The notes beneath the pieces are model-generated. The model made no database searches. It saw nothing but the letters and a program-made list of their open reading frames with translations, and was not told the origin of the DNA. 64,000 nt of DNA, taken from IMG/VR virus record IMGVR_UViG_3300029922_000004, one strand, 5' to 3'. Source of the stretch: a virus. This document shows, piece by piece, positions 7-63,187 of this stretch. A program made the translations under genes and the position numbers. Within the stretch, counting starts at the first letter, position 1. Every line of letters begins with the position of its first letter.

Positions 7-3000
7 TTGATGAGAATGCATCAGGGAGACTCACAAGAAAAATGGTACATTTATAAATACTGCCTTGGATTCAATAGTTATGGGAGTTGCACTGGGTGCG
101 GTTATCAAAGCGGGTTGTATAACTGGACTGGATGGAAATTCGCCCCGGCGACATTAACAATTCCGCCGAAAAGTCTTATTTCAATTAATATGAACCCAAA
201 AATGGGTAGTGGGGAAATTTTAAATCGCGTATTGAATCTGGATAATTATCAGAATATAGATTCGAGTATAACTTCCCCTTATTTAAGCGCATATGATTCT
301 GGTGACGGGGTATTGACTTGCGATGCTTACGTAGGCCCCCCGCAACTTAATGGACAATCTACGATGCCGGGATTTGTTTTTTATCAAACGTTTGATAGCT
401 ATAATTTTCCAAACACAGGAACAAAAGCAGCCGTAAAAATAAGGGCTGCGGTTGAAAATTCCGATAGGAGTTTTACTATCTCGTCTATTGATTTGGCTTC
501 TGGATTAGACCCGACTAACCATCTCGTCGGTGGGGGTCACGCAAGCGCGAGCATCATTAAAGTTATCAATTCTTCTGGTCAGTCAGATGACGTTTTACAA
601 AGCTGTTTGACCATTGGAAATAATTTCGGCAATGTCGCCAGCGGGACTTCTTCACTAGAATCAAACGCGGGATTCTTATATACTGGCTATACTTATTACA
701 TTAGTGGAAATCCAGTCAATATCTTTGACTTAATGCAGTCTGACTCTTCTACTGTCGGTTCTAAATATTCTCAACTAAAATACGTCGGTGGATATGCAAG
801 CGGTGTTACTAATTTTTCAATCAGCGACCAATATGCCTTTATAGTCACCGGCGATACTCAAACTGGTATAAACTACACAGGTAAATTATTTTATTATTCT
901 TATTTTAATGATGGGGTTTTGGGAGCTATGAATACAGGATGGACGGGAAATTTTGCTCCGATTCCAGATGTAGTCGCTAATAATTTACCATACTTCAATC
1001 CTAATTATACGACCCAGCCTGTAGAGAACTATTTACCGCGATATTCAACTGGACCATATCTAACTTATAATAATAAATTCTTATATCCTAATGCCAACTT
1101 TTTCGCTAATTTATACGACTCTAATACTAATGGATTCCCAGTGTCGGTCAATTATGTTATCACTATTAAAGAGGAGACTGTAAGAGAAATTTGTTTGACT
1201 TCTGGATTCGGCGGACAGGTCAATAATAGTTATGTAGTTAGAGCGTCTGCTGCAAGTAATCCGTCTGGCATAGGTACTTTAATGGCTACACCGTTTATTC
1301 CCAACGATTCACTTTATACATATACTTACGATTTTACGCGAAACCAGACGCTTTATCCTGAAAATGGAAATTTTATAAATGAGGCTAATCTAGGAGTGAA
1401 TTTAGTTAATAAAAACTACGTTCCTGATACTAATGGCTGTCCTCAAACAAATGTCAATTCTACACAATATAATTCTAATAATTTATTGTTTAACGCGGGA
1501 GTAAGATATACTGGCCAATTGATAGCTCGAAATATCTATACTGGTACTGCTGGTCAAACCGTAACAGTCAGTGTTTCGGAACCGATAGGCAATGGATTAT
1601 ATTGGGGATATAACGGCTCGCAGATTAGCGGTACTCTTTTATACGCGCCGCCAGTATTCGATTTAGAGACCTACTCTATTAGTCCTTCTAATAATTTGAA
1701 TACTTCGATGATTTTGAACAACATGTATTTAACTAGCCCCGTTTTTTCCAATAATGGTTCTATTAGATATGGCAGTCTTTATGACGGGAACGGAAACTAT
1801 AATGGAAAAGACCCTATATTTTACCAGTATGTCGGGGGGAGAAGCGGAACCAACTCTCAATCCGAGGGGGGTTATCATAGCAGTGGGATAATTGGTGACG
1901 CTTGGTATAACTTTAATGATGTAAATTGGGGTAATAATTATTATTACTGCAATGATGGGAGAAGTTATGTTCGTTGGCCAGAAAGCGACCAGTCTTTATT
2001 TTTAACAGCATTAACTTCTGGCGGGTTAAATGTATTTGCTAGGAACATGAATTATTATCCTTACTACCTTAATTGGAAGTATAATCCATATACTCTAAGC
2101 ACTCTCCCGACGTATCCGGGGGTATCTGTCACGCCAAGAAAGCTTGGAAGCCAATATTTCTTTGATTTTAACCTAAAAAATAACTTTCCTTTACAAACTG
2201 GGATTGGTGCCGGACTTAACATCGGTCCATTTGATAGGGATATTGAGTTGTGTATTACGGGGCAAAATTCCATAATTCCTAGTGGATACCTGATTATAGA
2301 TGGGGAAATATTAACAGACCCGTCTGCCAATGGGGATGGTTGCGCCTCTAATAACGTGGAGGGCTTTAAAATTAATAGTGGGATAATCCCCAATCAGGGA
2401 AACAGGAATGTCTTTACTACTTTCAAGTTAGTACCATCTGGAAGTATTAGTAATATTAACATATCTGGAACTGGAGTAATTGGTTTGAATTATAACTCTA
2501 TAGTAACTATCAGGCCAAGAACATGTTTCGGCGCGGTTGATTATAGCGCAATTCCTTCGGATTCCCTTCTGTCGGGCGATGTCGGCGTGATGGACAATTT
2601 CTTGTATATTACTAACGGCACAGAAAGCTTGTTTAATTTTCCGATGACTAATAATATTAGTTCGTTAGTTGGCTCAAAAATTGCCTTAACTACTGTTCCG
2701 CGAATAGAGGTTTTGTTTCCGGTGCCGGGGAGTGATTTTGATACGATTCTTAATCCCACGATTGATTCTTTCGGTAATAAGACTTATAGACAAGCTAATC
2801 CCACCCAATATTATTGGTCTCAAAAAACTCCGGGCGCAATGTATAGCGGATTACGAGAAACTACGCGAGTTTATCTTCATATTGACTCCCTATCGGCAAA
2901 CATAGGACAGACACCATACCAAGCCTACCAAACCATTATTCCATCGGGTTCATGCACTATTAGCGGAACTTTTGCTTATACTGGTCAGGCTGAGAGTTCA

Positions 3001-3603
3001 ATATTGACTGACGGAATAGTTTTGTCGGGAATATCAGGAGCGAGTTCACTGACTGGAATATTTACCCCAATTTACGTTTCTGACGTAATGCAAAGATTAC
3101 CGAGCGGGATAGAAGTTCTGCCTTCAGGAAGTGGTATAAGTCCGGTGTTATCTGCGCCGTCTTATATGAAGAAGAGGAAGAATTATTTTCAAATTACGGG
3201 CGGGGACGCTTATATAGAGACCTCACCTGTTCCTACTGGATTTTCGTATTACTACAACGCCTTCTTATGGCCAGCGTGGAGCGATTTAGCCCTGTTAAAT
3301 CCTAATATAGTATATGAGGCGATGCCGCCGGACGACGGGAATACTTTTTTGGGTAGTTATCTAACTTTTAGTGCGTGTCAAGGGCAAAATGTGGGAACAG
3401 GTTATAATCCTATTGAGAATGTAACTTATGGAGTTACTAGTCAGTGGGCGTTTTTGGATGGTATTTCAACTAATGCTCTTTATAATACGGGTAAGTGTAT
3501 ATTTTCGGGAGCGGCGGGGCAGACTACTTTAACCAGTGGAAATCTTTCGGGAATATTAACGGCACAGGGAAATTCGTTGACGATGGCTATTAATTTAAGA
3601 TAA
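7..3603 (+). CDS. Large G/N/S/Y-rich virion/tail-associated protein, probably 5'-partial
   Basis: 1198-aa ORF, frame open to the window edge; beta-rich low-charge composition typical of tail/adhesin proteins; no catalytic motif recognised. Confidence 0.55.
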   Translation: MMRMHQGDSQEKWYIYKYCLGFNSYGSCTGCGYQSGLYNWTGWKFAPATLTIPPKSLISINMNPKMGSGEILNRVLNLDNYQNIDSSITSPYLSAYDSGDGVLTCDAYVGPPQLNGQSTMPGFVFYQTFDSYNFPNTGTKAAVKIRAAVENSDRSFTISSIDLASGLDPTNHLVGGGHASASIIKVINSSGQSDDVLQSCLTIGNNFGNVASGTSSLESNAGFLYTGYTYYISGNPVNIFDLMQSDSSTVGSKYSQLKYVGGYASGVTNFSISDQYAFIVTGDTQTGINYTGKLFYYSYFNDGVLGAMNTGWTGNFAPIPDVVANNLPYFNPNYTTQPVENYLPRYSTGPYLTYNNKFLYPNANFFANLYDSNTNGFPVSVNYVITIKEETVREICLTSGFGGQVNNSYVVRASAASNPSGIGTLMATPFIPNDSLYTYTYDFTRNQTLYPENGNFINEANLGVNLVNKNYVPDTNGCPQTNVNSTQYNSNNLLFNAGVRYTGQLIARNIYTGTAGQTVTVSVSEPIGNGLYWGYNGSQISGTLLYAPPVFDLETYSISPSNNLNTSMILNNMYLTSPVFSNNGSIRYGSLYDGNGNYNGKDPIFYQYVGGRSGTNSQSEGGYHSSGIIGDAWYNFNDVNWGNNYYYCNDGRSYVRWPESDQSLFLTALTSGGLNVFARNMNYYPYYLNWKYNPYTLSTLPTYPGVSVTPRKLGSQYFFDFNLKNNFPLQTGIGAGLNIGPFDRDIELCITGQNSIIPSGYLIIDGEILTDPSANGDGCASNNVEGFKINSGIIPNQGNRNVFTTFKLVPSGSISNINISGTGVIGLNYNSIVTIRPRTCFGAVDYSAIPSDSLLSGDVGVMDNFLYITNGTESLFNFPMTNNISSLVGSKIALTTVPRIEVLFPVPGSDFDTILNPTIDSFGNKTYRQANPTQYYWSQKTPGAMYSGLRETTRVYLHIDSLSANIGQTPYQAYQTIIPSGSCTISGTFAYTGQAESSILTDGIVLSGISGASSLTGIFTPIYVSDVMQRLPSGIEVLPSGSGISPVLSAPSYMKKRKNYFQITGGDAYIETSPVPTGFSYYYNAFLWPAWSDLALLNPNIVYEAMPPDDGNTFLGSYLTFSACQGQNVGTGYNPIENVTYGVTSQWAFLDGISTNALYNTGKCIFSGAAGQTTLTSGNLSGILTAQGNSLTMAINLR

Positions 3604-3910
3604 CTTCTCCCTTGATAATTGTAAAATGAGCGGGGCAAGATTTTTCTTTTCTTGATACGGGATGGTCTTTAATACTTGGCTCAATCGAAACTAAGTCATA
3701 AGCATTTAAAGCATTTCCCTCTGGAGGGAAGGTCCACTTCCAGACCGCTAAAAGCGGTTGTGCTTGTTCGTTTAACAGGGCATGGATAGCGATAAGTTTC
3801 CCACAAACGGGACAGTCAAAAGCGATAGTATGACAACGATTTAAAGGTTCGGGTAAAAGATTATTAGTCCAGCCGCCGAGAATAGATGGATTTAATTGAG
3901 AAAATTTCAT
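3590..3910 (-). CDS. Small Cys/His protein (DUF6527-like)
   Basis: CPVCG ... SIEPSI ... CPAHFTIIKGEV pattern; overlaps neighbours in an operon. Confidence 0.5.
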   Translation of the reverse strand: MKFSQLNPSILGGWTNNLLPEPLNRCHTIAFDCPVCGKLIAIHALLNEQAQPLLAVWKWTFPPEGNALNAYDLVSIEPSIKDHPVSRKEKSCPAHFTIIKGEVILN

Positions 3911-4142: not shown

Positions 4143-5363
4143 TTATTTAATATCCTTAAGGTCACTTAATTTGTCGTAGATTGAATTTTGTTGCGAGGCC
4201 ACTGAATCCGCGAATAAACTATCATCGGCTGTTTTTGACCCGCTTACTATAACTACCGAACCTTCGGGCGGAATACCGTTATTCATCGTTTTACAATCTT
4301 CTAGCTTATTAGGACGCCATTTGGTTTCCTTAGTGTTTTCGCCGAGGCCGAATAACATCACCTTTATAGACCCGCTTTCGTCGGAGATTTGAAAATTCGC
4401 GTAGGGAGTTCCGGCTTTGGACTTGGTAACTTTAACTTCGTCAATCTTGCCGATGAAGTCGCAGTGGTTCTTTTCTTCTAGTTTTTTCACTTCGGAGATT
4501 GGAATTAGGGTGGACTTTTTGTGGAGGAAGATGTCGCGGAGTTTTTTGCCGGTATTGTAACCGAGGAGTTTTTCGGAATAAAAATAATTTGCAAAATCAA
4601 GGCTAATTTTGTTTTTGTTATAAATTTCCTTGTATTTTTGTGAATTCCGCTTAATTGTTTCAAAACGAGAAGGTTTAATCAAAGGTTTGCCCTTTTCATC
4701 CTTGACTACTTCTACTAATGCTTTAACTGTCTTGGCTACATTGTCTTCGTAGTTTTTGGCGTATTTGGCGACGTTGAGTTTTTCATGGTCTTTTAAAAGA
4801 TTCCAAAGTTGAGCTTCGTAGACGAGTAGGACGCGATTCTTACCGAGAGAGTCTAAACATCCCGCCTGAATGATTGCGCTGATTATCCCAATACCTAAAC
4901 CCGCTTTTTTGGCGGAAGAGAATAACTCAAATTTACTAGCATATTGACGTTGGAAATTATTGAATTTTTCCATTGTTTTTTCGCTGATACCCTTGATAGA
5001 CGCCAGACCGAAACGAATATTCTTATCTTCAATTGCGAAGTCCATGCCGGATAAAGTCAAACTCGGCGGAAGTAATTCCACCCCAAAAGACGACATCTCT
5101 TTATGAATTTTAGAAATTTCGCCAATCGGGTCAGGCTCATTGCGAGTCATTTTTAATAGAGAAAGATAGAATTGAGTTGGATAATTGAACTTGAGGTAAA
5201 CGGTTTGAGCGGTAAGGATAGAATATGCAAAAGAATGGCTATTGCTAGTCACCATGCCTTCAGCATAGAAGTTATGGTCTTTGTGGTCAACTTCTAAATC
5301 AATTGTAGGCTTAACCCCAATCGGTTTGATAGAAATGATTTTTTGTTTTTTTACAGTTTTCAT
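4143..5363 (-). CDS. dnaE: DNA polymerase III alpha, C-terminal part, with N-terminal C-intein
   Basis: Begins with a 41-aa IntC ending HNFYAEGMVTSN, then SHSFAYS; LLPP, IRFGLASIKG HhH and OB-fold motifs. Confidence 0.92.
   Translation of the reverse strand: MKTVKKQKIISIKPIGVKPTIDLEVDHKDHNFYAEGMVTSNSHSFAYSILTAQTVYLKFNYPTQFYLSLLKMTRNEPDPIGEISKIHKEMSSFGVELLPPSLTLSGMDFAIEDKNIRFGLASIKGISEKTMEKFNNFQRQYASKFELFSSAKKAGLGIGIISAIIQAGCLDSLGKNRVLLVYEAQLWNLLKDHEKLNVAKYAKNYEDNVAKTVKALVEVVKDEKGKPLIKPSRFETIKRNSQKYKEIYNKNKISLDFANYFYSEKLLGYNTGKKLRDIFLHKKSTLIPISEVKKLEEKNHCDFIGKIDEVKVTKSKAGTPYANFQISDESGSIKVMLFGLGENTKETKWRPNKLEDCKTMNNGIPPEGSVVIVSGSKTADDSLFADSVASQQNSIYDKLSDLKDIK
5241..5363 (-). other. Split intein C-fragment (IntC, 41 aa)
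   Basis: TIDLEV block F, HNFYAEG, terminal Asn followed by +1 Ser. Confidence 0.9.
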
Positions 5364-5387: not shown

Positions 5388-6236
5388 ATGAATAACATTA
5401 TTGATTTAATAGGCCAAGATAAAGAAATAACCACACTAACAGATATCGTATATCATACGTTCCCGTTAAAGGATTTTGGTTCTTTAAGAGAGATTCGGGC
5501 TTTTTTACATAAAAATGGAGGTATTTATTCTTGGTTTGATTCAGAGACGCGAAAAATATACATAGGCAGCAGTAAAAATTTATGGAGACGATTTCTTTCA
5601 TATAAAAATTCCTTCTTTTATGGTAAAACAAAAAGAGTAAATATTAAATTGCTTCATAGGGTTGAAAAAGTAGGAATTAAAAATATCAAATTCTTTGTAT
5701 TGGAGCTTTTTAATAAAGAAGAGCTAGAACTTAGAAAACTAGAGCAGGAATATCTTGATAAATGTCTACCATTTGGTAAAAATGGATTTAATATACGTAA
5801 AAGCACCATTGTATATAAACCCAAACTCTTACCACAAGAAGTAATTGATAAGATAATCGAAACCCACACTGGGGAAAATTCTTCAAATGCTATCTTGACT
5901 AATGATGCCGTTTTATTAATAAAAAAACAATTAATTAGCGGCGTAAAACTTAAACCCATCTCCAAAGAATTTAAAGTATCAACTACGGTCATTAGTAATA
6001 TCAAAAGAGGCCTTACTTGGTCGCATATAAAATTATCCGAAAAAGAAGAAGAGCAATTAAAATTACTCGTCGAGCGCGATAAACGGCTCAATCTTCCACG
6101 CGAACTCATAAAATCCATTAAACGAGACATAAAATCTGGTATAAAAATGAATTTACTTGCTAAAAAATATAATTTAGGATACACTTGTATAACTGGTTTA
6201 AAATATGGTTCTTTTTATAAAGAAATCAATCCGTAA
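5388..6236 (+). CDS. Free-standing GIY-YIG homing endonuclease, antisense between the dnaE halves
   Basis: GGIYSW...IYIGSSKNLWRRF motif, conserved E and N, C-terminal HTH-like repeats. Confidence 0.9.
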   Translation: MNNIIDLIGQDKEITTLTDIVYHTFPLKDFGSLREIRAFLHKNGGIYSWFDSETRKIYIGSSKNLWRRFLSYKNSFFYGKTKRVNIKLLHRVEKVGIKNIKFFVLELFNKEELELRKLEQEYLDKCLPFGKNGFNIRKSTIVYKPKLLPQEVIDKIIETHTGENSSNAILTNDAVLLIKKQLISGVKLKPISKEFKVSTTVISNIKRGLTWSHIKLSEKEEEQLKLLVERDKRLNLPRELIKSIKRDIKSGIKMNLLAKKYNLGYTCITGLKYGSFYKEINP

Positions 6237-8046
6237 GTATTCTATATTGTTTTTCTATAATTTCTTTTAAGGGGCGCATAACTTTATCTTCGCATAATAA
6301 TTTATGTTCTAATGAGACGCGCAAGGTTCGTCCATCCTCGATGGTTATTTCATAAAGTTCTTTACTGCCAGCGATGACATCTATAACCTCTACAAAATGA
6401 TTTAGGTCATTTGTTACGTTATAAGCTTTGACTTTATCGCCGACTTTAACGTCTTTCAGCATAATCTTCCCCCTCGTTTCTTCCTGAACCGTCTCTTCTT
6501 CAAAGGCGCATTTATTGAAACTGTATCCGCCGCTATCCTCAATAATTCGCCAAAAAACCTCTCCTACATCTTGTGGTAATTTATTTTCAATAATTTTATC
6601 CTGAATCTTCTTTTCCCAAGACTTAATCTTTTCTAGGTCCTTTTTTCCAATTGCGCGTCGAAGCTGCTCTGATTCGTCAAGCGTAAAACCAATCTTATTA
6701 GCCATTTTAAGAGCCTGTTCTTGATAAAGGCATAAATTTCCGGTCTCGTGCAGAACGTCATCAAAAAATGGATGAATGGAATCAACAACCCCAGTATTAG
6801 AATATGTTGCAAATTTTTCTGTAAACTGAAGCGCTCCGGGTCTGGCTATAGCAAGAACGGCGCTTATTTCTCCTAAATTTTTTGGTTTAACTTTTTGTGT
6901 GACATTGTATCCTACCAAGGTTTCAATTTGGAACAGTCCATGAGGACTCTTTAAATCCTGCAAAGCCCTATAAATAGACAAATCATTAACATTAATGTCT
7001 GTTGGTTTGATACCAAGAGATTTGCAACAGTCCTCAATAACAGATACGCTTCTTAACCCAAGAACATCTAATTTTACTGCGAAAGACGCTACATCATTCA
7101 TACTATAACTTGATACCAAATCTTTATCGGAAGATAATTGGGTGGGGCAACAATCTTCAAGTAAATCAAATGAAATCAATAGGCCCGAAGGGTGTACTCC
7201 GAAATTCTTATTTAAATTATTTAATTTAAGTGAAGTTTCATATATTAAGGGATTTTTATCGCACCATTCTTTGAGTTCGGGAACGGGTTTGACCTTCCAT
7301 TCCCCATTCTTGTCCTTCAAGCCGTTGACTGCATCAGTAATCTCTTCAACGATTCCGTGAGATTTGGGAATCATGCTAGTCACCATAGTCATTTCGTCTT
7401 CGGCCTTCATCCCCAAGACTTTACCAACCTCTTTAATTAGTAGTTTAGAAGAAAGGGTATTTAAGGTGAGAATTTTGCAGGTTCGACCAAGATATTTAGT
7501 TTCAATATACTTTAAAACTTCGCCTCTTCGATAGAATTCGGCGTCAAAATCCACGTCAGGCGTCAGAGTTCCATCAAGGTATGTCACTCCGTCAATAATG
7601 GTTTTTTTGGCTCTGCTTTTTGATACAAATCTCTCGAAGTAGAGACCATGCTTAATGGAGTCGATTTTAGTTACCCCTATAAGGAATAATACCAAACTTC
7701 CAGCGGCAGAACCTCTGCCCGGACCTGTTGAAATATTATTTTCGTGGCAGAAGTTCAAAACATCCCATACTAATAGAATGTAATCTGTAAATCCCAATTC
7801 ATTCAAAGTATCCAATTCGTATTTTATTCTAGCAGTATATTCATCGTATTCTTTGGTTCCTTTTTTGAGATTTAGCGCGAGGAAGCCTTTTTTACATAAG
7901 GCACGGAGAAAGTCGAAATTGGAAGTTTCCTTGGGAAGATTGAGTTCTTTGAGATATTTTTCTTCCAGTTGAATAACTGGTAAGCGAACTCCCAAAACTG
8001 GGTTAGCAATGGGGGAAAATTGTGATATGAAATCGGCGGGATTCAT
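6226..8046 (-). CDS. dnaE: DNA polymerase III alpha, catalytic part (no PHP domain), with C-terminal N-intein
   Basis: GPGRGSAAGSLV, PDVDFD, HPSG, KLDVLGL, YQEQ, GYSFNK followed by CAFEEE. Confidence 0.93.
   Translation of the reverse strand: MNPADFISQFSPIANPVLGVRLPVIQLEEKYLKELNLPKETSNFDFLRALCKKGFLALNLKKGTKEYDEYTARIKYELDTLNELGFTDYILLVWDVLNFCHENNISTGPGRGSAAGSLVLFLIGVTKIDSIKHGLYFERFVSKSRAKKTIIDGVTYLDGTLTPDVDFDAEFYRRGEVLKYIETKYLGRTCKILTLNTLSSKLLIKEVGKVLGMKAEDEMTMVTSMIPKSHGIVEEITDAVNGLKDKNGEWKVKPVPELKEWCDKNPLIYETSLKLNNLNKNFGVHPSGLLISFDLLEDCCPTQLSSDKDLVSSYSMNDVASFAVKLDVLGLRSVSVIEDCCKSLGIKPTDINVNDLSIYRALQDLKSPHGLFQIETLVGYNVTQKVKPKNLGEISAVLAIARPGALQFTEKFATYSNTGVVDSIHPFFDDVLHETGNLCLYQEQALKMANKIGFTLDESEQLRRAIGKKDLEKIKSWEKKIQDKIIENKLPQDVGEVFWRIIEDSGGYSFNKCAFEEETVQEETRGKIMLKDVKVGDKVKAYNVTNDLNHFVEVIDVIAGSKELYEITIEDGRTLRVSLEHKLLCEDKVMRPLKEIIEKQYRILTD
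6229..6510 (-). other. Split intein N-fragment (IntN, 94 aa)
   Basis: Cys1 (CAFEEETV), VKVGDKV, block B VSLEHKLL, ends at the stop codon. Confidence 0.9.
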
Positions 8047-10784: not shown

Positions 10785-11809
10785 ACGCGATTTTTCGGAG
10801 GAAGAGAGTTTTGTTTAATTTCAAAGATTCCATTTCCGATTGCTTCCGTGAGAGTAGAATATCCGCTATAACTAACATAGGATGCGATTCCAGACCATAA
10901 ATCTTCCACCAATTCCTTGAGGGGTTTAAGTTCGCGGATTTCATTAATCTCCTTGCCCTCAGAGTGTCTTACTATTTTGCCGTGAGTGAGAATTTGCTGT
11001 TTGTGACTAGCCCCGCCCCAATATGCACCATCTCCATTCAGATTAGATTCCGCTTCCAAAGCGTTCATAAAATACCCGCCTAGCATGATGTAGTCTGCGC
11101 CCGCCGCTAAAGCCTTGCAAGCAGAACTTCCTTTGTGAATCCCGCCGTCTGCACAGATATAAGACTTTAACTGACTCCAATTATCATTACTAGACTTGCC
11201 TTCAACGCACTCCATGATTTCCGTAATCTGCCCGCGATTTACCCCAACAACATCAGAAGTAGAACAAGGGCGACCATTTGCGATACCAACCCTGACAATC
11301 AATTCGGGGATTTCCAAGTCTTTGCAAATTTCCGAGAGATAATAAAAACCCTCTAAGGAGTGAATATTCCCAATAACTAAAGACTCAATCTCAGTCATAT
11401 CTAGCATTTTAGAAAGACTTTCCTTAATTTGGGGCATGTAACCATTAGCACAATCTAAACACCATTTTCGGGGACTGCTAAAATTCGTCAGGTATCCTAT
11501 CCTATCTGCGTCGTCTAAACCAACCGAACAATAAACATTTTGAGTGTTATATTTGTTACCCCAATCATGGTCTATTTTTTCGTAGATATCGCGTTGTGAT
11601 TCGGGTGTTCCAAAACGATGAAGACAAACTGTAAGTCCTAATTTCGCGGCGGCAACGGCGAACTTTTCTCCTACTACTGCCATCATTGGACTGACGATAA
11701 TTCGGCGGAGTTCTTTCGGAACGTCGGCGCGGGATTTAACTTGGCCGACCTGTGCTATAAGATTAACGTCGGGATAGTAAAGGCTTTTGGTTTTTAAAAT
11801 GGTCGCCAT
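10781..11809 (-). CDS. guaC: GMP reductase / IMPDH-family protein
   Basis: SPMMAV, LHRF, RVGIANGRPCST, ADGGI, MLGG, SYVSYSG; no CBS domains. Confidence 0.75.
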   Translation of the reverse strand: MATILKTKSLYYPDVNLIAQVGQVKSRADVPKELRRIIVSPMMAVVGEKFAVAAAKLGLTVCLHRFGTPESQRDIYEKIDHDWGNKYNTQNVYCSVGLDDADRIGYLTNFSSPRKWCLDCANGYMPQIKESLSKMLDMTEIESLVIGNIHSLEGFYYLSEICKDLEIPELIVRVGIANGRPCSTSDVVGVNRGQITEIMECVEGKSSNDNWSQLKSYICADGGIHKGSSACKALAAGADYIMLGGYFMNALEAESNLNGDGAYWGGASHKQQILTHGKIVRHSEGKEINEIRELKPLKELVEDLWSGIASYVSYSGYSTLTEAIGNGIFEIKQNSLPPKNRV

Positions 11810-43520: not shown

Positions 43521-43550
43521 CTTGACATTTTCCGAAAAGTATGCAATAAT
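43521..43550 (+). promoter_or_regulatory. Sigma70-type promoter
   Basis: cTTGACA-TTTTCCGAAAA...AATAAT. Confidence 0.65.
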
Positions 43551-54086: not shown

Positions 54087-55163
54087 CTAGGCTTGCACCA
54101 AAGACGCTAATCCACGTCTTAAAATATTACGAGCCGCGTTAATGTCACGGTCGATTTTGTTTCCACATCCACAATTCATCATTCTATCGTCCAGCGACAG
54201 ATTGTGGATTTTTCCACACGAATTGCACGTCTTGGAAGTATTGCTTGGATTCACGCGGATGAGTTTCCTACCGGCACTTGCAGCCTTGTAGGACAGCATC
54301 TGCGCGAATTGCGCCCAAGATACGTCGTTATACGTTCTATTGATATTCCGAATGTCACCACTGGAAAGTTTTTTAATGTCCAAATCCTCGATTACAACTA
54401 TGCCATTTTCGGCGATGAGACGGTTGGAAAGTTTGTGGTTGAAGTCGAGACGTTGGTTAGTGATTTTGCGAAAAATATTACCGACGACGCGGCTGCGTTT
54501 TTTTCTGGCAAGACTGCCCTTTTCTTCTTTATCGCGCCTAGACGCGGCTTTCTTTATTCGTTTTAGGTTAAGGCGTAGAAATTTCGGAGACTCAAACTTT
54601 TCTCCTGCGGAAGTTGTAACGAAAGTTTTCAGCCCGAAATCCAATCCGATTGCGTCTTTACTGGGCGTATAAATCTTCATAGGTGCGTCAACCGTAAAAC
54701 TTGCGAAGAATTGCCCGCTTTGATATTTTACAGTGACGCGGGAATATTTTGTCAGAGTTCGGTGAGAAATCATTGGGATATTACCGACGTGCTGGATGTA
54801 AAGTTTGGAGCCTATCGCCTTTGCCCCGTCACCCGCCGCAAATTCTATTGACGAAAGCATTTTTTTGAAGCGCGGGAATCCGGGTTTCTGTCCCAATTTT
54901 ACGCGGCGGAAGAAATTTTGGAAGGCTTTATCCAAGCGTCTTACCGTTTGTTGCAATGACGAGACATTGGTCTTGTCTTTAAATTTCGGAACGTTGGCTT
55001 TAATCTGGTCTATCGCTGACGGTGAAGATTTGGTTTTCTCATAAACGTCAATTCGTTCTTGTCGGCAAAAATTGTAGAGTTCACAATGCTTTGCCATTTG
55101 CCGGAAGAGTTCACGTTTCTGATGCTTCGACGGATAAATACGAAATTTTATTACGGACTTCAT
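54087..55163 (-). CDS. tnpB: TnpB RNA-guided endonuclease
   Basis: FRIYP HTH, GLDFG, IEDL, CxxC zinc finger, DRDINAARNIL; catalytic D-E-D present. Confidence 0.93.
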   Translation of the reverse strand: MKSVIKFRIYPSKHQKRELFRQMAKHCELYNFCRQERIDVYEKTKSSPSAIDQIKANVPKFKDKTNVSSLQQTVRRLDKAFQNFFRRVKLGQKPGFPRFKKMLSSIEFAAGDGAKAIGSKLYIQHVGNIPMISHRTLTKYSRVTVKYQSGQFFASFTVDAPMKIYTPSKDAIGLDFGLKTFVTTSAGEKFESPKFLRLNLKRIKKAASRRDKEEKGSLARKKRSRVVGNIFRKITNQRLDFNHKLSNRLIAENGIVVIEDLDIKKLSSGDIRNINRTYNDVSWAQFAQMLSYKAASAGRKLIRVNPSNTSKTCNSCGKIHNLSLDDRMMNCGCGNKIDRDINAARNILRRGLASLVQA

Positions 55164-58900: not shown

Positions 58901-59443
58901 ATGTGGGGATATCAAACGGTTTGTAAAGCATGTGGGAATTTATTAGGCTCCACGTCTGGAATTGACTCTATTAATTATACAATTTGCAAAAACTGTAAAA
59001 CAACTATGAAAATCAACGAACTAAAAATAGGTGACAAAATCAAATTCAAACTCGACCAAGACGTTCACGTTACTACTATAGTAGAAATTACTGAATCTAA
59101 AATCCTCACCACACATTTAGGAAGATGGCTTCGGGGTGGCGAATTCTGGATTCGTCACGACCAAGTAATTTGCAAACTTGAATCCGTGCCAGATAAGGAA
59201 ATACCAATCGAATTTCCCGCACCGCCATTTGAATTTATGTTTCAGCCTCAAGAAGCGAGCGTTCGTAATAATATTGATGAATATGGTAATTATTACTATC
59301 CGTTAAAGCCTCGTATTATCAACACTTTTACAGAAGTAAAGGGCATTAATAATAAAAGCGAACCAGTTAGTCTTTTAATTCCGTATTCGCTGATATTCAA
59401 GTCTAATACGAATTATAAAGTTACCATCGAAGAAATTCCTTGA
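58901..59443 (+). CDS. Hypothetical protein
   Basis: 180-aa ORF. Confidence 0.6.
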   Translation: MWGYQTVCKACGNLLGSTSGIDSINYTICKNCKTTMKINELKIGDKIKFKLDQDVHVTTIVEITESKILTTHLGRWLRGGEFWIRHDQVICKLESVPDKEIPIEFPAPPFEFMFQPQEASVRNNIDEYGNYYYPLKPRIINTFTEVKGINNKSEPVSLLIPYSLIFKSNTNYKVTIEEIP

Positions 59444-60828: not shown

Positions 60829-60980
60829 ACCACGACCACGAAATACAAGACAAATGGCAAAAAGCCCATAATCATCTCCAAGAAGAAGAAAAACAAAACG
60901 CGGCTAACGCCAAATTCCTATTTCGACTGTTCTTTTGGGGGATTGTCGGACTGTTGATATTCTGCTATTTCGCGCGATGA
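60825..60980 (+). CDS. Small membrane protein
   Basis: 51 aa, C-terminal TM, ATGA overlaps on both sides. Confidence 0.55.
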   Translation: MNHDHEIQDKWQKAHNHLQEEEKQNAANAKFLFRLFFWGIVGLLIFCYFAR

Positions 60981-61360
60981 AAGATTTAATTAAAAGGCTT
61001 CGCAGGTTTAACGCTTGGCGGCGCGGTGATGACCCGCGAACTTTTCCAGATTTGAATATCTCCCCCAAGCAAATCGGGCTGGATATTGACGCCGCTATTC
61101 GCGTCATAGAAAATTCACAATGTCTGGCAGATATTAGAAAGGATGCCATACTGGTTAATGAGAATTATCTCTACGAATTGTGTGACGCCGTTACTCAACT
61201 TGAACGTCGCGGGTATAAGTTTTGTGTTGATTTTGGCTATGATAACGCGATTGAGAAATTCAATAGTTTAACGAAAAAAGCTGAGCCACCGCCGACTCGC
61301 GACGTGAACCGCGATAGCGGAACTGACAGCGCCAACAGCGGTTGGCTCGGCGACTTGTGA
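60977..61360 (+). CDS. Hypothetical protein reading through attC1
   Basis: C-terminal ~30 aa are encoded by the repeat. Confidence 0.55.
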   Translation: MKDLIKRLRRFNAWRRGDDPRTFPDLNISPKQIGLDIDAAIRVIENSQCLADIRKDAILVNENYLYELCDAVTQLERRGYKFCVDFGYDNAIEKFNSLTKKAEPPPTRDVNRDSGTDSANSGWLGDL

Positions 61361-61363
61361 GGC
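61266..61363 (+). repeat. attC-like site 1 (R' mutated)
   Basis: R'' GTTTAAC, L boxes GCTGAGCCA/TGGCTCGGC, R' GTGAGGC; 90 bp identical to site 2. Confidence 0.72.
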
Positions 61364-61389
61364 GGATGGCTCACAACTGACATAAAAAT

Positions 61390-61533
61390 ATGAATATGAT
61401 AACTGAAATAGCGGTAACTATCTACGAACACCATCCAATCCTATTCTGGCCTTGGCTGGCTTTAGTCGTGGCTTGGCTTGTGGTGCTAATCTTATGGCTC
61501 ATAACTGCAATCCAAATACTCACACGCCGATGA
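61390..61533 (+). CDS. 47-aa membrane peptide (cassette gene)
   Basis: Single TM ORF between the two attC-like sites. Confidence 0.55.
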   Translation: MNMITEIAVTIYEHHPILFWPWLALVVAWLVVLILWLITAIQILTRR

Positions 61534-61543
61534 AACTCAATCC

Positions 61544-61641
61544 GCCTAACGAAAAAAGCTGAGCCACCGCCGACTCGCGACGTGAACCGCGATAGCGGAA
61601 CTGACAGCGCCAACAGCGGTTGGCTCGGCGACTTGTTAGGC
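61544..61641 (+). repeat. attC-like site 2
   Basis: ATCCGCCTAAC ... GTTAGGCGGAT perfect R''/R' with inner L boxes. Confidence 0.8.
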
Positions 61642-61664
61642 GGATGGACTACTTACATAAATTT

Positions 61665-61880
61665 ATGAAAAACCAATGGCAACCAATCGAAACCGCTCCG
61701 AATGATGACACCATCATAGACATCTGGACTCCATCTGACGGGCGGCTAACAAACTATCAGCGCGAACAATTAAGTCCGACAAATATATTCTACTCACCAG
61801 TCAAATCCGGCGTCTGCTGCGTCCGTAACGCAACCCATTGGATGCCTATACCGAATCCGCCTAACAATAGGAGAATATGA
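61665..61880 (+). CDS. DUF551-like protein (cassette gene)
   Basis: WQPIETAP...THWMPIP; ends on an orphan R'' GCCTAAC at 61859-61865. Confidence 0.75.
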   Translation: MKNQWQPIETAPNDDTIIDIWTPSDGRLTNYQREQLSPTNIFYSPVKSGVCCVRNATHWMPIPNPPNNRRI

Positions 61881-62293: not shown

Positions 62294-63187
62294 ATGCCTA
62301 TAACATCATCTATTATCGCCGACAGTATTAACCCAAAAGGTAATCGTTTAACCTCATTCGTGTTGGAATACCCACGTTACATCCATAGCGAAATTTTAAC
62401 TCACCGCGTTTTCTCCAAGAACGCGGCCAGTTCCCGCGCTATACCTATAGAAAAGATGATTCAACAGGTTATTGATAATCCTGCCATGCCGACACATTGG
62501 GGGAAAAATCAGTCGGGGATGCAAGCGAATGAGGAATTAAGTGGTATAGATTTATACGAATGCAAGAAATTGTGGTTGCTCGCTAGGGATGAAATGGTGG
62601 AGTATGTAAAGCAACTTTCCGCCAGTAATCTACACAAACAAATAGCCAATCGCATCCTTGAGCCTTGGTTTCATATTAAAATTATCCTTTCGGGGACTGA
62701 ATTTGAGAACTTCTTTTCTTTACGCGCTCACCCCGCCGCCCATCCAGACCTTCAAAAACTTGCATATTTAATGCTTGAACAATATAATGAATCTGCTCCA
62801 AAACAACTTAACGAGGGAGACTGGCATATTCCGTTTGGAGATAAAATTACCGATGAAGGTTTAAATAAATTATTTAATGAATTCGGATTAGGATGTAATT
62901 GGGTTAAAGATAGGCAAGATGAATTTAAAATTAAGATAGCGATTGCGAGATGTGCGCGAATTTCGTATCTTAACTACGAAGGAAAAGATGATTATGCCGC
63001 TGACATTAAACTCTGTGATAGGCTTTTTGGGAATACTCCAAAACACCTTTCCCCGACCGAACACGTTGCTCAAGCACAGAACAATTCTGATTGGAGCGGA
63101 AACTATAAGGGTTTTAAACAGTATCGTAAGTTCTTCCAAGACGAAAACCTTTCTGACCCGCGAGTAATCAAAAAGTTTATTTCTTGA
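62294..63187 (+). CDS. thyX: FAD-dependent thymidylate synthase
   Basis: EILTHRVFSKNAASSRAIP, ANRILEPW, HLSPTEH. Confidence 0.82.
   Translation: MPITSSIIADSINPKGNRLTSFVLEYPRYIHSEILTHRVFSKNAASSRAIPIEKMIQQVIDNPAMPTHWGKNQSGMQANEELSGIDLYECKKLWLLARDEMVEYVKQLSASNLHKQIANRILEPWFHIKIILSGTEFENFFSLRAHPAAHPDLQKLAYLMLEQYNESAPKQLNEGDWHIPFGDKITDEGLNKLFNEFGLGCNWVKDRQDEFKIKIAIARCARISYLNYEGKDDYAADIKLCDRLFGNTPKHLSPTEHVAQAQNNSDWSGNYKGFKQYRKFFQDENLSDPRVIKKFIS

Follow-up and report, generated by a model that had tools for sequence, protein, structure and literature searches.

Integron cassettes that lie outside integrons have been described in two settings close to the one reported here. Qi et al. (2023, PMC9892861) found 17 clusters of attC sites that have no integron integrase (CALINs) in phage genomes, and the integrase IntI1 recombined five of six phage attC sites. 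Loot et al. (bioRxiv 10.1101/2022.09.11.507474) reported the insertion of cassettes at attG sites with the consensus GWT, which was proposed as the origin of single attC sites lacking integron integrases (SALINs) and of small CALINs. In the published anatomy of attC sites (Nivina 2016, PMC5027507) the bottom strand carries an R' box RYYYAAC on its 5' arm, the length is 57-141 nt, the unpaired spacers measure 5-6 nt, and extrahelical bases stand on the arm opposite AAC at positions 16 (usually G) and 23/24 (T), 6 bp apart. Here we analyze a locus of this kind in a stretch of 64,000 nucleotides of the IMG/VR virus record IMGVR_UViG_3300029922_000004; "the window" below means this stretch at its full length. 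A preliminary description had proposed integron-type attC sites and cassettes in a phage without a nearby integrase, a proposal now supported by the occurrence of the attC family in arrays of Verrucomicrobiota, by junctions at the IntI triplet and by a relative that lacks one of the cassettes. With a probability of about 0.75 we read the region as a two-cassette array without integrase, that is a CALIN, in an uncultured peat jumbo phage, inserted by IntI at a secondary site. Phage CALINs and attG insertion are already published, and no new mechanism is established.

With the phage CALINs of Qi et al. the locus shares at least two attC sites with cassettes, the absence of a nearby intI gene, boundary motifs of the GTTRRRY type and the idea that phages have access to the cassette pool. 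It differs in that its donor attC family is traceable to a bacterial phylum (94% identity to an array site of Verrucomicrobiota), that both junctions are readable to the nucleotide and are accompanied by presence or absence at the strain level, that the cargo is antisense and phage-like, and that the genome carrying the array belongs to an uncultured peat jumbo phage. The attG route, like the insertion proposed here, involves conservative insertion at a short GWT-type target outside an integron, a small array of two cassettes and an inserted cassette that is expressible from local transcription. Here the target would be a phage genome rather than a bacterial chromosome, it would match the full GTTRRRY (GTTAAAC) and not only GWT, and the empty target is a prediction.

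The sedentary chromosomal integrons of Verrucomicrobiota (genomes G001, G175 and G355) have the same R boxes, GCCTAAC/GTTAGGC, the same L' core CTGAGCC and L'' core TTGGCTC and the same length class (98-128 nt), and some G001 cassettes have the extended R box ATCCGCCTAAC. Those integrons come with an IntI, forward open reading frames (ORFs), toxin-antitoxin-like cassettes and both extrahelical bases, whereas the phage array lacks an IntI within the window, contains only antisense ORFs and has lost base 16. Finally, the PeSL (promoter early stem-loop) cassettes of T4-type phages also consist of small accessory genes flanked by short repeats, between which relatives gain or lose genes. The PeSL repeats, however, are promoter or stem-loop elements of the phages' own that recombine by homology, whereas the repeats described here are attC sites of bacterial integrons with junctions at the IntI triplet.

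The attC family and its two members in the phage

The two sites are parts of a 101-nt direct repeat (61269-61369 and 61547-61647) whose copies differ by one mismatch (100/101 identity). The two 98-bp sites of the preliminary description are real, and the identity is better than the 90 of 98 given for them there. Copy 2 is an imperfect hairpin with 84 nt between the arms of an 11-bp perfect inverted repeat (ATCCGCCTAAC at 61540-61550 and GTTAGGCGGAT at 61635-61645). Folded as single-stranded DNA, a check that had been suggested at the outset, it reached -29.6 kcal/mol (z = -4.9; none of 200 shuffles folded as well), and it surpassed shuffled sequences on both strands (z = -4.9 and -4.4). The 11-mer ATCCGCCTAAC occurs four times in the window with at most one mismatch, against 0.79 expected, the third exact copy lying at 61855-61865. 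Inverted R boxes of the form RYYYAAC...GTTRRRY stand at both ends of each site, intact in copy 2 and with one box mutated in copy 1; those of copy 2 are the window's sole GCCTAAC/GTTAGGC pair with perfect complementarity. Outside the sites, generic RYYYAAC..GTTRRRY pairs (for example at 11734 and 20315) occur at the chance rate and are not matched by the covariance model described below.

A scan with the 11-bp inverted repeat against one genome per prokaryote species returned four places, one of which, in the Verrucomicrobiia metagenome-assembled genome G001, is homologous over the whole length. This genome contains at least 15 attC-like sites about 330-700 bp apart in arrays at three contig ends, together with a fragment of an IntI gene that matches TIGR02249 positions 200-313 with 191 bits and is cut by the contig end. 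A covariance model (R1) was built from 13 G001 sites only, with no phage sequence, and applied to the entire window with its filters switched off. Its only two matches lie on the plus strand, one at 61538-61647 with 59.4 bits (E 8.5e-16) and one at 61260-61369 with 40.1 bits (E 5.4e-10). Copy 2 scored 14.3 bits on the minus strand, and the next-best match in the 64 kb had an E value of 0.49. Within the family, the hairpin is corroborated by nine pairs with compensatory changes and by 95.9% paired cells, against 21-44% in slid controls.

Members of the family were found in 5 of 401 sampled Verrucomicrobiota genomes and in none of 401 sampled Acidobacteriota genomes. The best match, G175:C8:1169-1265, is 94% identical. 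The same genome has a complete integron on contig C30, with three attC sites matched by the model (581-691, 1104-1214 and 1729-1843) and, at 2811-3725, an IntI gene whose score of 375.9 bits exceeds the curated TIGR02249 cut-off of 265. Because a model of purely bacterial origin matches both copies and the family adjoins IntI genes, we regard it as practically certain that the two 98-nt hairpins, judged by their sequence, are genuine integron attC sites.

The family is abundant where the phage occurs. A metagenome search for the attC, another of the suggested checks, showed it in the peat runs that hold the phage, in which the attC stretch gathers hundreds of contigs per run with a summed depth of 16,000-85,000, whereas the phage flanks reach 4-9. 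For more than 200 database proteins, the match to the upstream phage ORF is confined to about 30 attC-encoded residues. An attC 22-mer was absent from IMG/VR, and an Rfam scan of the region returned nothing relevant. In the G175:C8 array that holds the 94% identical site (L045), positions 1921-2462 contain a two-gene cassette that by eye resembles the Phd/YefM-YoeB toxin-antitoxin type, a type of cassette typical of sedentary chromosomal integrons. A second attC subfamily is apparent in this array, read as ...RDKHPCG... in several ORFs.

In the sites of G001 and G175, C16 and T23 are extrahelical with a 6-bp stem between them, and the spacers measure 8 and 5 nt; this geometry is canonical except for C in place of G at position 16. 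The phage sites are 98 nt long, with a 13-bp L stem, spacers of 7 and 5 nt and one arm longer than typical. They keep the T bulge and have lost the first extrahelical base, at position 16, by a 1-nt deletion (GGCTCCGGC to GGCTCGGC). The spacer lengths that had been called atypical are confirmed; an extrahelical base, which had been thought to lack clear representation, is present as the T at 61342/61343 and 61620/61621, and what is missing relative to the family is explained by the deletion. Both phage copies carry this deletion and a G>A change at 61337/61615, neither of which was seen among more than 100 metagenome attC copies inspected. Because these private changes are common to both, the two sites were probably homogenized within the phage lineage. 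On the minus strand, which is the attC top strand, 61283-61298 and 61561-61576 form a short GC hairpin followed by TTTTTT that is weakly terminator-like and could halt antisense transcription through the array.

Strand orientation, junctions and proposed insertion

In the integron on G175:C30 the attC sites stand in the orientation of the phage plus strand, on the same strand as intI, with the cassette ORFs on the opposite strand. The arrays of G001 and of G175:C8, the latter with the toxin-antitoxin-like cassette, have the same arrangement, and the ORFs of the bacterial arrays start about 12 nt past G|TTAGGC on the strand opposite the phage-plus orientation. This layout indicates that the plus strand of the window is the attC bottom strand, the one that IntI recombines. 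It follows that the R' and R'' labels of the preliminary description are swapped: its R''/L''/L'/R' layout was reversed, and its R'' corresponds to the bottom-strand R' box, where crossover takes place. It also follows that the cargo ORFs are not canonical promoterless cassette ORFs.

Three boundaries delimit two units, cassette B on the left and cassette A on the right (Table 1). The core TAAC is common to all three, and within it lies the point of IntI cleavage, AA|C on the bottom strand (top strand G|TT). On the plus strand, the left boundary reads ...CAATAGTT|TAAC-GAAAAAAG (phage to attC), the middle one ...AATCCGCC|TAAC-GAAAAAAG (cassette to attC) and the right one ...AATCCGCC|TAAC-AATAGGAG (cassette to phage), or in short form AGTT|TAAC-attC, CGCC|TAAC-attC and CGCC|TAAC-phage. 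The third box, which had been taken for an orphan R'', is the right-hand recombination junction and not a decayed site. Each of the two cassettes has one attC and unit boundaries at G|TT (bottom AA|C). A CALIN is defined by two or more neighboring attC sites without an integron integrase close by, and here two sites supported by the covariance model lie 278 bp apart, with no IntI in 64 kb.

Table 1. Features of the cassette array and its surroundings (positions in the window)
Feature	Position	Strand	Basis or remark
attC of cassette B (repeat copy 1)	61266..61363	+ (attC bottom strand)	Covariance model R1, 40.1 bits; 100/101 identity to copy 2
Copy 1 R' box, hybrid GTTTAAC	61266-61272	+	Phage target through A61271, attC from C61272
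Copy 1 L' stem and L'' stem	61280-61292; 61338-61351	+	Extrahelical T at 61342/61343
Copy 1 R'' box GTGAGGC	61357-61363	+	Mutated from GTTAGGC
attC of cassette A (repeat copy 2)	61544..61641	+ (attC bottom strand)	Covariance model R1, 59.4 bits; fold; 94% to G175:C8:1169-1265
Copy 2 R' box GCCTAAC, then spacer GAAAAAA	61544-61550; 61551-61557	+	
Copy 2 L' stem, then variable terminal structure	61558-61570	+	
Copy 2 L'' stem	61616-61629	+	Extrahelical T at 61620/61621
Copy 2 spacer GACTT, then R'' box GTTAGGC	61630-61634; 61635-61641	+	
Cassette B, attC body and cargo ORF47	61272..61549 (278 bp between AA|C points)	-	Junctions; missing in P0130 strain
Cassette A, attC body and cargo DUF551 gene	61550..61864 (315 bp)	-	Junctions; four closest DUF551 homologues (79-96%) all end PPN
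Right-hand junction box GCCTAAC	61859..61865	+	GCCTAA from cassette A, phage from C61865; encodes conserved PNPP(N) end
ORF47, small hydrophobic peptide resembling a single transmembrane segment, 47 aa, cargo of cassette B	61390..61533	+ (attC bottom strand)	Homologues
DUF551-family gene, cargo of cassette A	61665..61880	+ (attC bottom strand)	Pfam PF04448, E 0.002, C-terminal motif only
Phage gene with 3' end hit by the insertion	60977..61360	+	Reads through attC at about 61272-61360; homologues P0002, P0003
YopX-family gene, right-hand phage neighbor	61877..62287	+	Pfam PF09643, E 1.5e-12; AGGAG ribosome-binding site intact just right of the junction
Phage promoter-type motif TTGAC-N6-CGAAA	59440..59455	+	Heads plus-strand gene run with the array; next copy at 63184

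Because TAAC with AA|C is common to all three boundaries, we propose a conservative site-specific reaction. In a host cell expressing an integron integrase, presumably borne by the host, excised cassette circles would have been inserted conservatively into the phage genome. The target would have been an attG-type secondary site with the top strand GTTAAAC, a perfect GTTRRRY, predicted to be cut as G|TTAAAC. It would have lain in the last codons of a phage gene of about 100 aa just upstream of the YopX-family gene, and insertion would have given that gene a 30-aa tail encoded by attC. The predicted ancestral phage sequence is ...TTCAATAGTTTAA|CAATAGGAGAATATG, the empty site under the attG model would read ...AGTTTAAC|AATAGG... 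(also written TTCAATAGTTTAACAATAGGAG and ...AGTTTAACAATAGG...), and the junction of a circular cassette, closing A or B, would be ...ATCCGCCTAA|CGAAAAAAG.... That host IntI was the agent we infer from the geometry of the junctions. The interrupted gene itself can be compared with its native homologues: P0002 (encoded on 16 contigs of up to 194 kb) and P0003, of 98 and 78 aa, end ...AIEKARQL, and the window version runs on for 30 residues through attC, up to the TGA at 61358-61360. This stop, which closes the ORF at 60977-61360, is created by the GTT>GTG change in copy 1, as had already been noted from the sequence.

Variation between strains follows the same units. P0130 (137 aa, from an independent ENA contig of 1771 nt) is the second member of the 90%-identity cluster of the read-through protein. 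It equals the window translation minus exactly the 278-bp unit, differing by only four substitutions at residues 21-27, and it ends ...WLGDLLGGWTTYINL, that is with attC followed directly by the leader of cassette A. Because P0130, whose junction, like those of P0002, P0121, P0122 and P0131, is read from the protein end, matches the window with this unit removed, its sequence is that of a closely related strain without exactly cassette B, and the comparison of relatives that had been recommended thus does reveal cassette gain or loss. The mechanism of such gain or loss would be either attC x attC recombination or a homologous exchange between the 101-nt repeats.

Instead of being inserted by IntI, a piece of a host cassette array might have entered the phage during infection by illegitimate or short-homology recombination, with real attC sites as passengers. 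Active recombination genes are common to phages of this type, and the window contains a UvsX-like match; the insert has the 6-nt repeat CAATAG on either side, and Qi et al. (PMC9892861) raise the same possibility for phage CALINs. Such a route would have to bring the two insert ends into the 4-nt TAAC core of an R' box and leave a hybrid left box that matches RYYYAAC perfectly; if breakpoints fell at random in units of about 290 bp, the double coincidence would amount by a rough estimate to about (4/290)^2. The cargo, moreover, is unlike bulk host DNA (G+C 0.43-0.46, with a phage-type DUF551 gene). Entry without IntI is therefore considered unlikely.

Cargo genes and assembly

The two cargo proteins had been described as a transmembrane peptide and a DUF551-like protein, each as the single small promoterless ORF of its unit. 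The identities are upheld, by a hydrophobic peptide of 47 aa and by the DUF551 motif (Table 1), and both ORFs exist and have homologues, but they are not canonical: both are antisense to the canonical cassette direction, which is the top strand reading towards attC, and they run with phage transcription. Homologues of ORF47 are 70-96% identical and lie on contigs of up to 14 kb; a profile search of IMG/VR with ORF47 gave no match. Those of the DUF551 ORF are 55-96% identical, one of them carrying PF04448, and a scan of JGI metagenomes returned only distant DUF551 homologues with at most 51% identity and did not recover the contigs of P0121 and P0122. The two ORFs have a leader of about 25 nt in common and start at the same position after attC, so that attC, leader and ORF together form the repeating unit. 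The bodies of cassettes A and B have no significant overall similarity (z = -0.7).

A scan for sigma-70 promoters found none for the cargo ORFs. Both are co-oriented with the plus-strand run of phage genes headed by the motif at 59440, and because of this orientation they would be expressed by phage read-through from that promoter. In a genuine bacterial array of the same attC family, a lipoprotein-like ORF of 149 aa (G001:C20, L031, 16424-16873, plus strand) lies on the attC bottom strand. With this precedent, antisense ORFs appear atypical yet compatible with cassette membership.

The right-hand junction runs through the DUF551 gene, whose last five codons and stop lie in phage DNA beyond it. 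The four closest homologues (79-96%) all end ...PPN and continue into four different sequences, two of the four lacking a stop at the normal place, whereas in more distant homologues a stop comes after ...PPK. PPN is followed by phage DNA in the window, by a fused phage-type gene in P0131 and by distinct tails in P0121 (JGI contig, 3246 nt) and P0122 (1176 nt). A crossover at CCTAA|C predicts both the replacement of K by N and the variety of the sequence downstream. In P0131 (ENA contig, 791 nt) a 96% identical DUF551 is fused in frame after ...NPPN to a small phage-type gene (MKPKDQITALAELDGW...) that is absent from the window. The P0121 and P0122 tails may be back-translated by eye (N-D/E-K-L) to TAAC-GAnAAG-CTGA, which would be the start of the family attC; a search for the tail peptides in the fetched attC translations gave no match.

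These endings bear on a second alternative, in which DUF551 is native at its position, only the attC material and ORF47 were inserted upstream of it, and the third box is simply conserved coding sequence for the DUF551 C terminus. Native DUF551 genes of unrelated phage contigs do end PNPPK, with up to 10/12 identity to AATCCGCCTAAC, P0131 puts its DUF551 beside another phage-type gene, and DUF551 and YopX are common phage neighbors. A native gene, however, would not account for the PPN ends with their divergent continuations, no junction of the G|TT type can be placed between attC and the DUF551 start, and the leader and start position that DUF551 has in common with ORF47 argue in the same direction. 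We hold a native DUF551 to be quite improbable.

Several observations nevertheless weigh against an insertion of two cassettes by IntI. An allele with the empty site was not seen, which leaves the contiguity of the phage flanks as a prediction; IMG/VR contains neither the expected empty site TTCAATAGTTTAACAATAGGAG nor the rival site with a single CAATAG, TTCAATAGGAG. The direct repeat CAATAG occurs at both flanks (61261-61266 and 61865-61870) and permits a reading by duplication or microhomology. In agreement with the preliminary description, a tblastn search with three IntI proteins gave no integron integrase (all E > 0.7); it covered the 64 kb of the window, out of a genome that measures at least 186 kb. 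With extrahelical base 16 lost and spacers of 7 and 5 nt, the phage attC sites may be poor substrates for recombination or less selective for the strand. Both cargo ORFs are antisense to their attC sites, the canonical strand of either cassette having no ORF of 30 aa or more, and the G+C content of the cargo (0.43-0.46) is nearer to that of the phage (0.39) than to that of the Verrucomicrobial arrays (about 0.50). DUF551 is a typical phage gene, and because its conserved PNPP(K) end itself resembles an R box, the third box is partly explained and does not count as independent attC evidence. The loss of cassette B could equally stem from homologous recombination between the repeats.

A third possibility, that the assembler looped host cassettes into the phage contig by way of the abundant attC repeat, was weighed with Logan contigs of four peat runs aligned to the array. 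The attC family exceeds the summed depth of the phage more than 1000-fold in the same samples, no Logan contig of the four runs bridges the array, and the body of cassette B (61404-61537) has no or almost no cover in them, with flanks and cassette A covered. This hole agrees with the strain of P0130 that lacks B and is not used as evidence. Set against a mis-assembly are separate contigs at phage depth (8.6 and 8.4), which run without mismatch from the left flank into the attC start and from the attC end through cassette A into YopX. The independent ENA contig encodes P0130 across flank, attC and cassette A leader, both attC copies carry the lineage-private changes, and the exact read-through protein with its private TGA next to cassette B is found on two contigs. 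A mis-assembly is thus very improbable. In runs X1, X2, X5 and X7, contigs of depth 22-52 join 61373 to 61539, that is the R'' end of an attC to the next R' box after about 4 nt. These joints may represent near-empty cassettes, probably of another organism's array, a reading that is uncertain given their short sides (26 nt); the sides of the listed contig joints are all below 30 nt, and other organisms' arrays are their probable source.

Finally, a repeat of the phage's own that merely resembles attC, such as a module boundary element or a terminator hairpin, would fit the weak terminator-like hairpin and T-run on the minus strand of each copy, but it is effectively refuted by the presence of only two copies in 64 kb, the 94% identity to a bacterial cassette-array site, the match to a covariance model of bacterial attC sites and the IntI genes that the family adjoins.

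Phage context and significance

The window is phage DNA by its gene content (genes for DNA polymerase, a DnaB-like helicase, a terminase-like protein and ribonucleotide reductase). The exact read-through protein is also encoded on a contig of 185,976 bp, which makes the phage a jumbo phage; at least 12 peat metagenome runs contain it. INPHARED contains no close relative of the window, the only matches being to ThyX (67-72%). The relatives that IMG/VR contains of ORF127, DUF551 and YopX reach only 30-52% identity, with no attC close to any of them. There are 11 copies of the motif TTGAC-N6-CGAAA in the window, against 0.25 expected (at 43522, 46634, 50076, 52078, 57660, 59440 and 63184, among others); they point in the direction of the surrounding genes, a pattern that suggests a promoter type specific to the phage.

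Two further observations concern other parts of the window. A 358-aa ORF at 54087-55163 (minus strand) matches PHROG 506, annotated as transposase, over its full length (E 3e-88). Two ORFs at 6226-8046 and 4143-5363, both on the minus strand, match phrog_405 at positions 323-793 and 793-1082; the DNA polymerase gene looks split in two, with about 860 bp between the parts.

Beyond the published phage CALINs and attG insertions, the locus adds junctions read to the base, a traceable donor lineage, a polymorphism between strains and an antisense, phage-like cargo. As a natural case of integron cassettes that lie outside an integron it is a clean one, set in a large phage of lytic type, with cassette gain or loss between strains. 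As a fingerprint, the attC family ties an uncultured peat jumbo phage to hosts with integrons of the Verrucomicrobiota type, a hint at the host that is not available from marker genes.

The phage-like antisense cargo, finally, raises the testable idea of a two-way gene flow between phages and the integron cassette pool. A more specific form of it, which we put forward as doubtful, is that this pool may carry phage accessory genes in an orientation useless to the bacterial cassette promoter (Pc), that phages would swap them through host IntI, and that the DUF551 cassette may have been born when a conserved PNPPK-encoding end (10-11 of 12 nt identical to AATCCGCCTAAC, the extended R' box of the family) served as a pseudo-R' joined to an attC. 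If true, the orientation and phage-like nature of the cargo would be no accident, and the DUF551 cassette would illustrate how a cassette can arise in nature from a phage gene.

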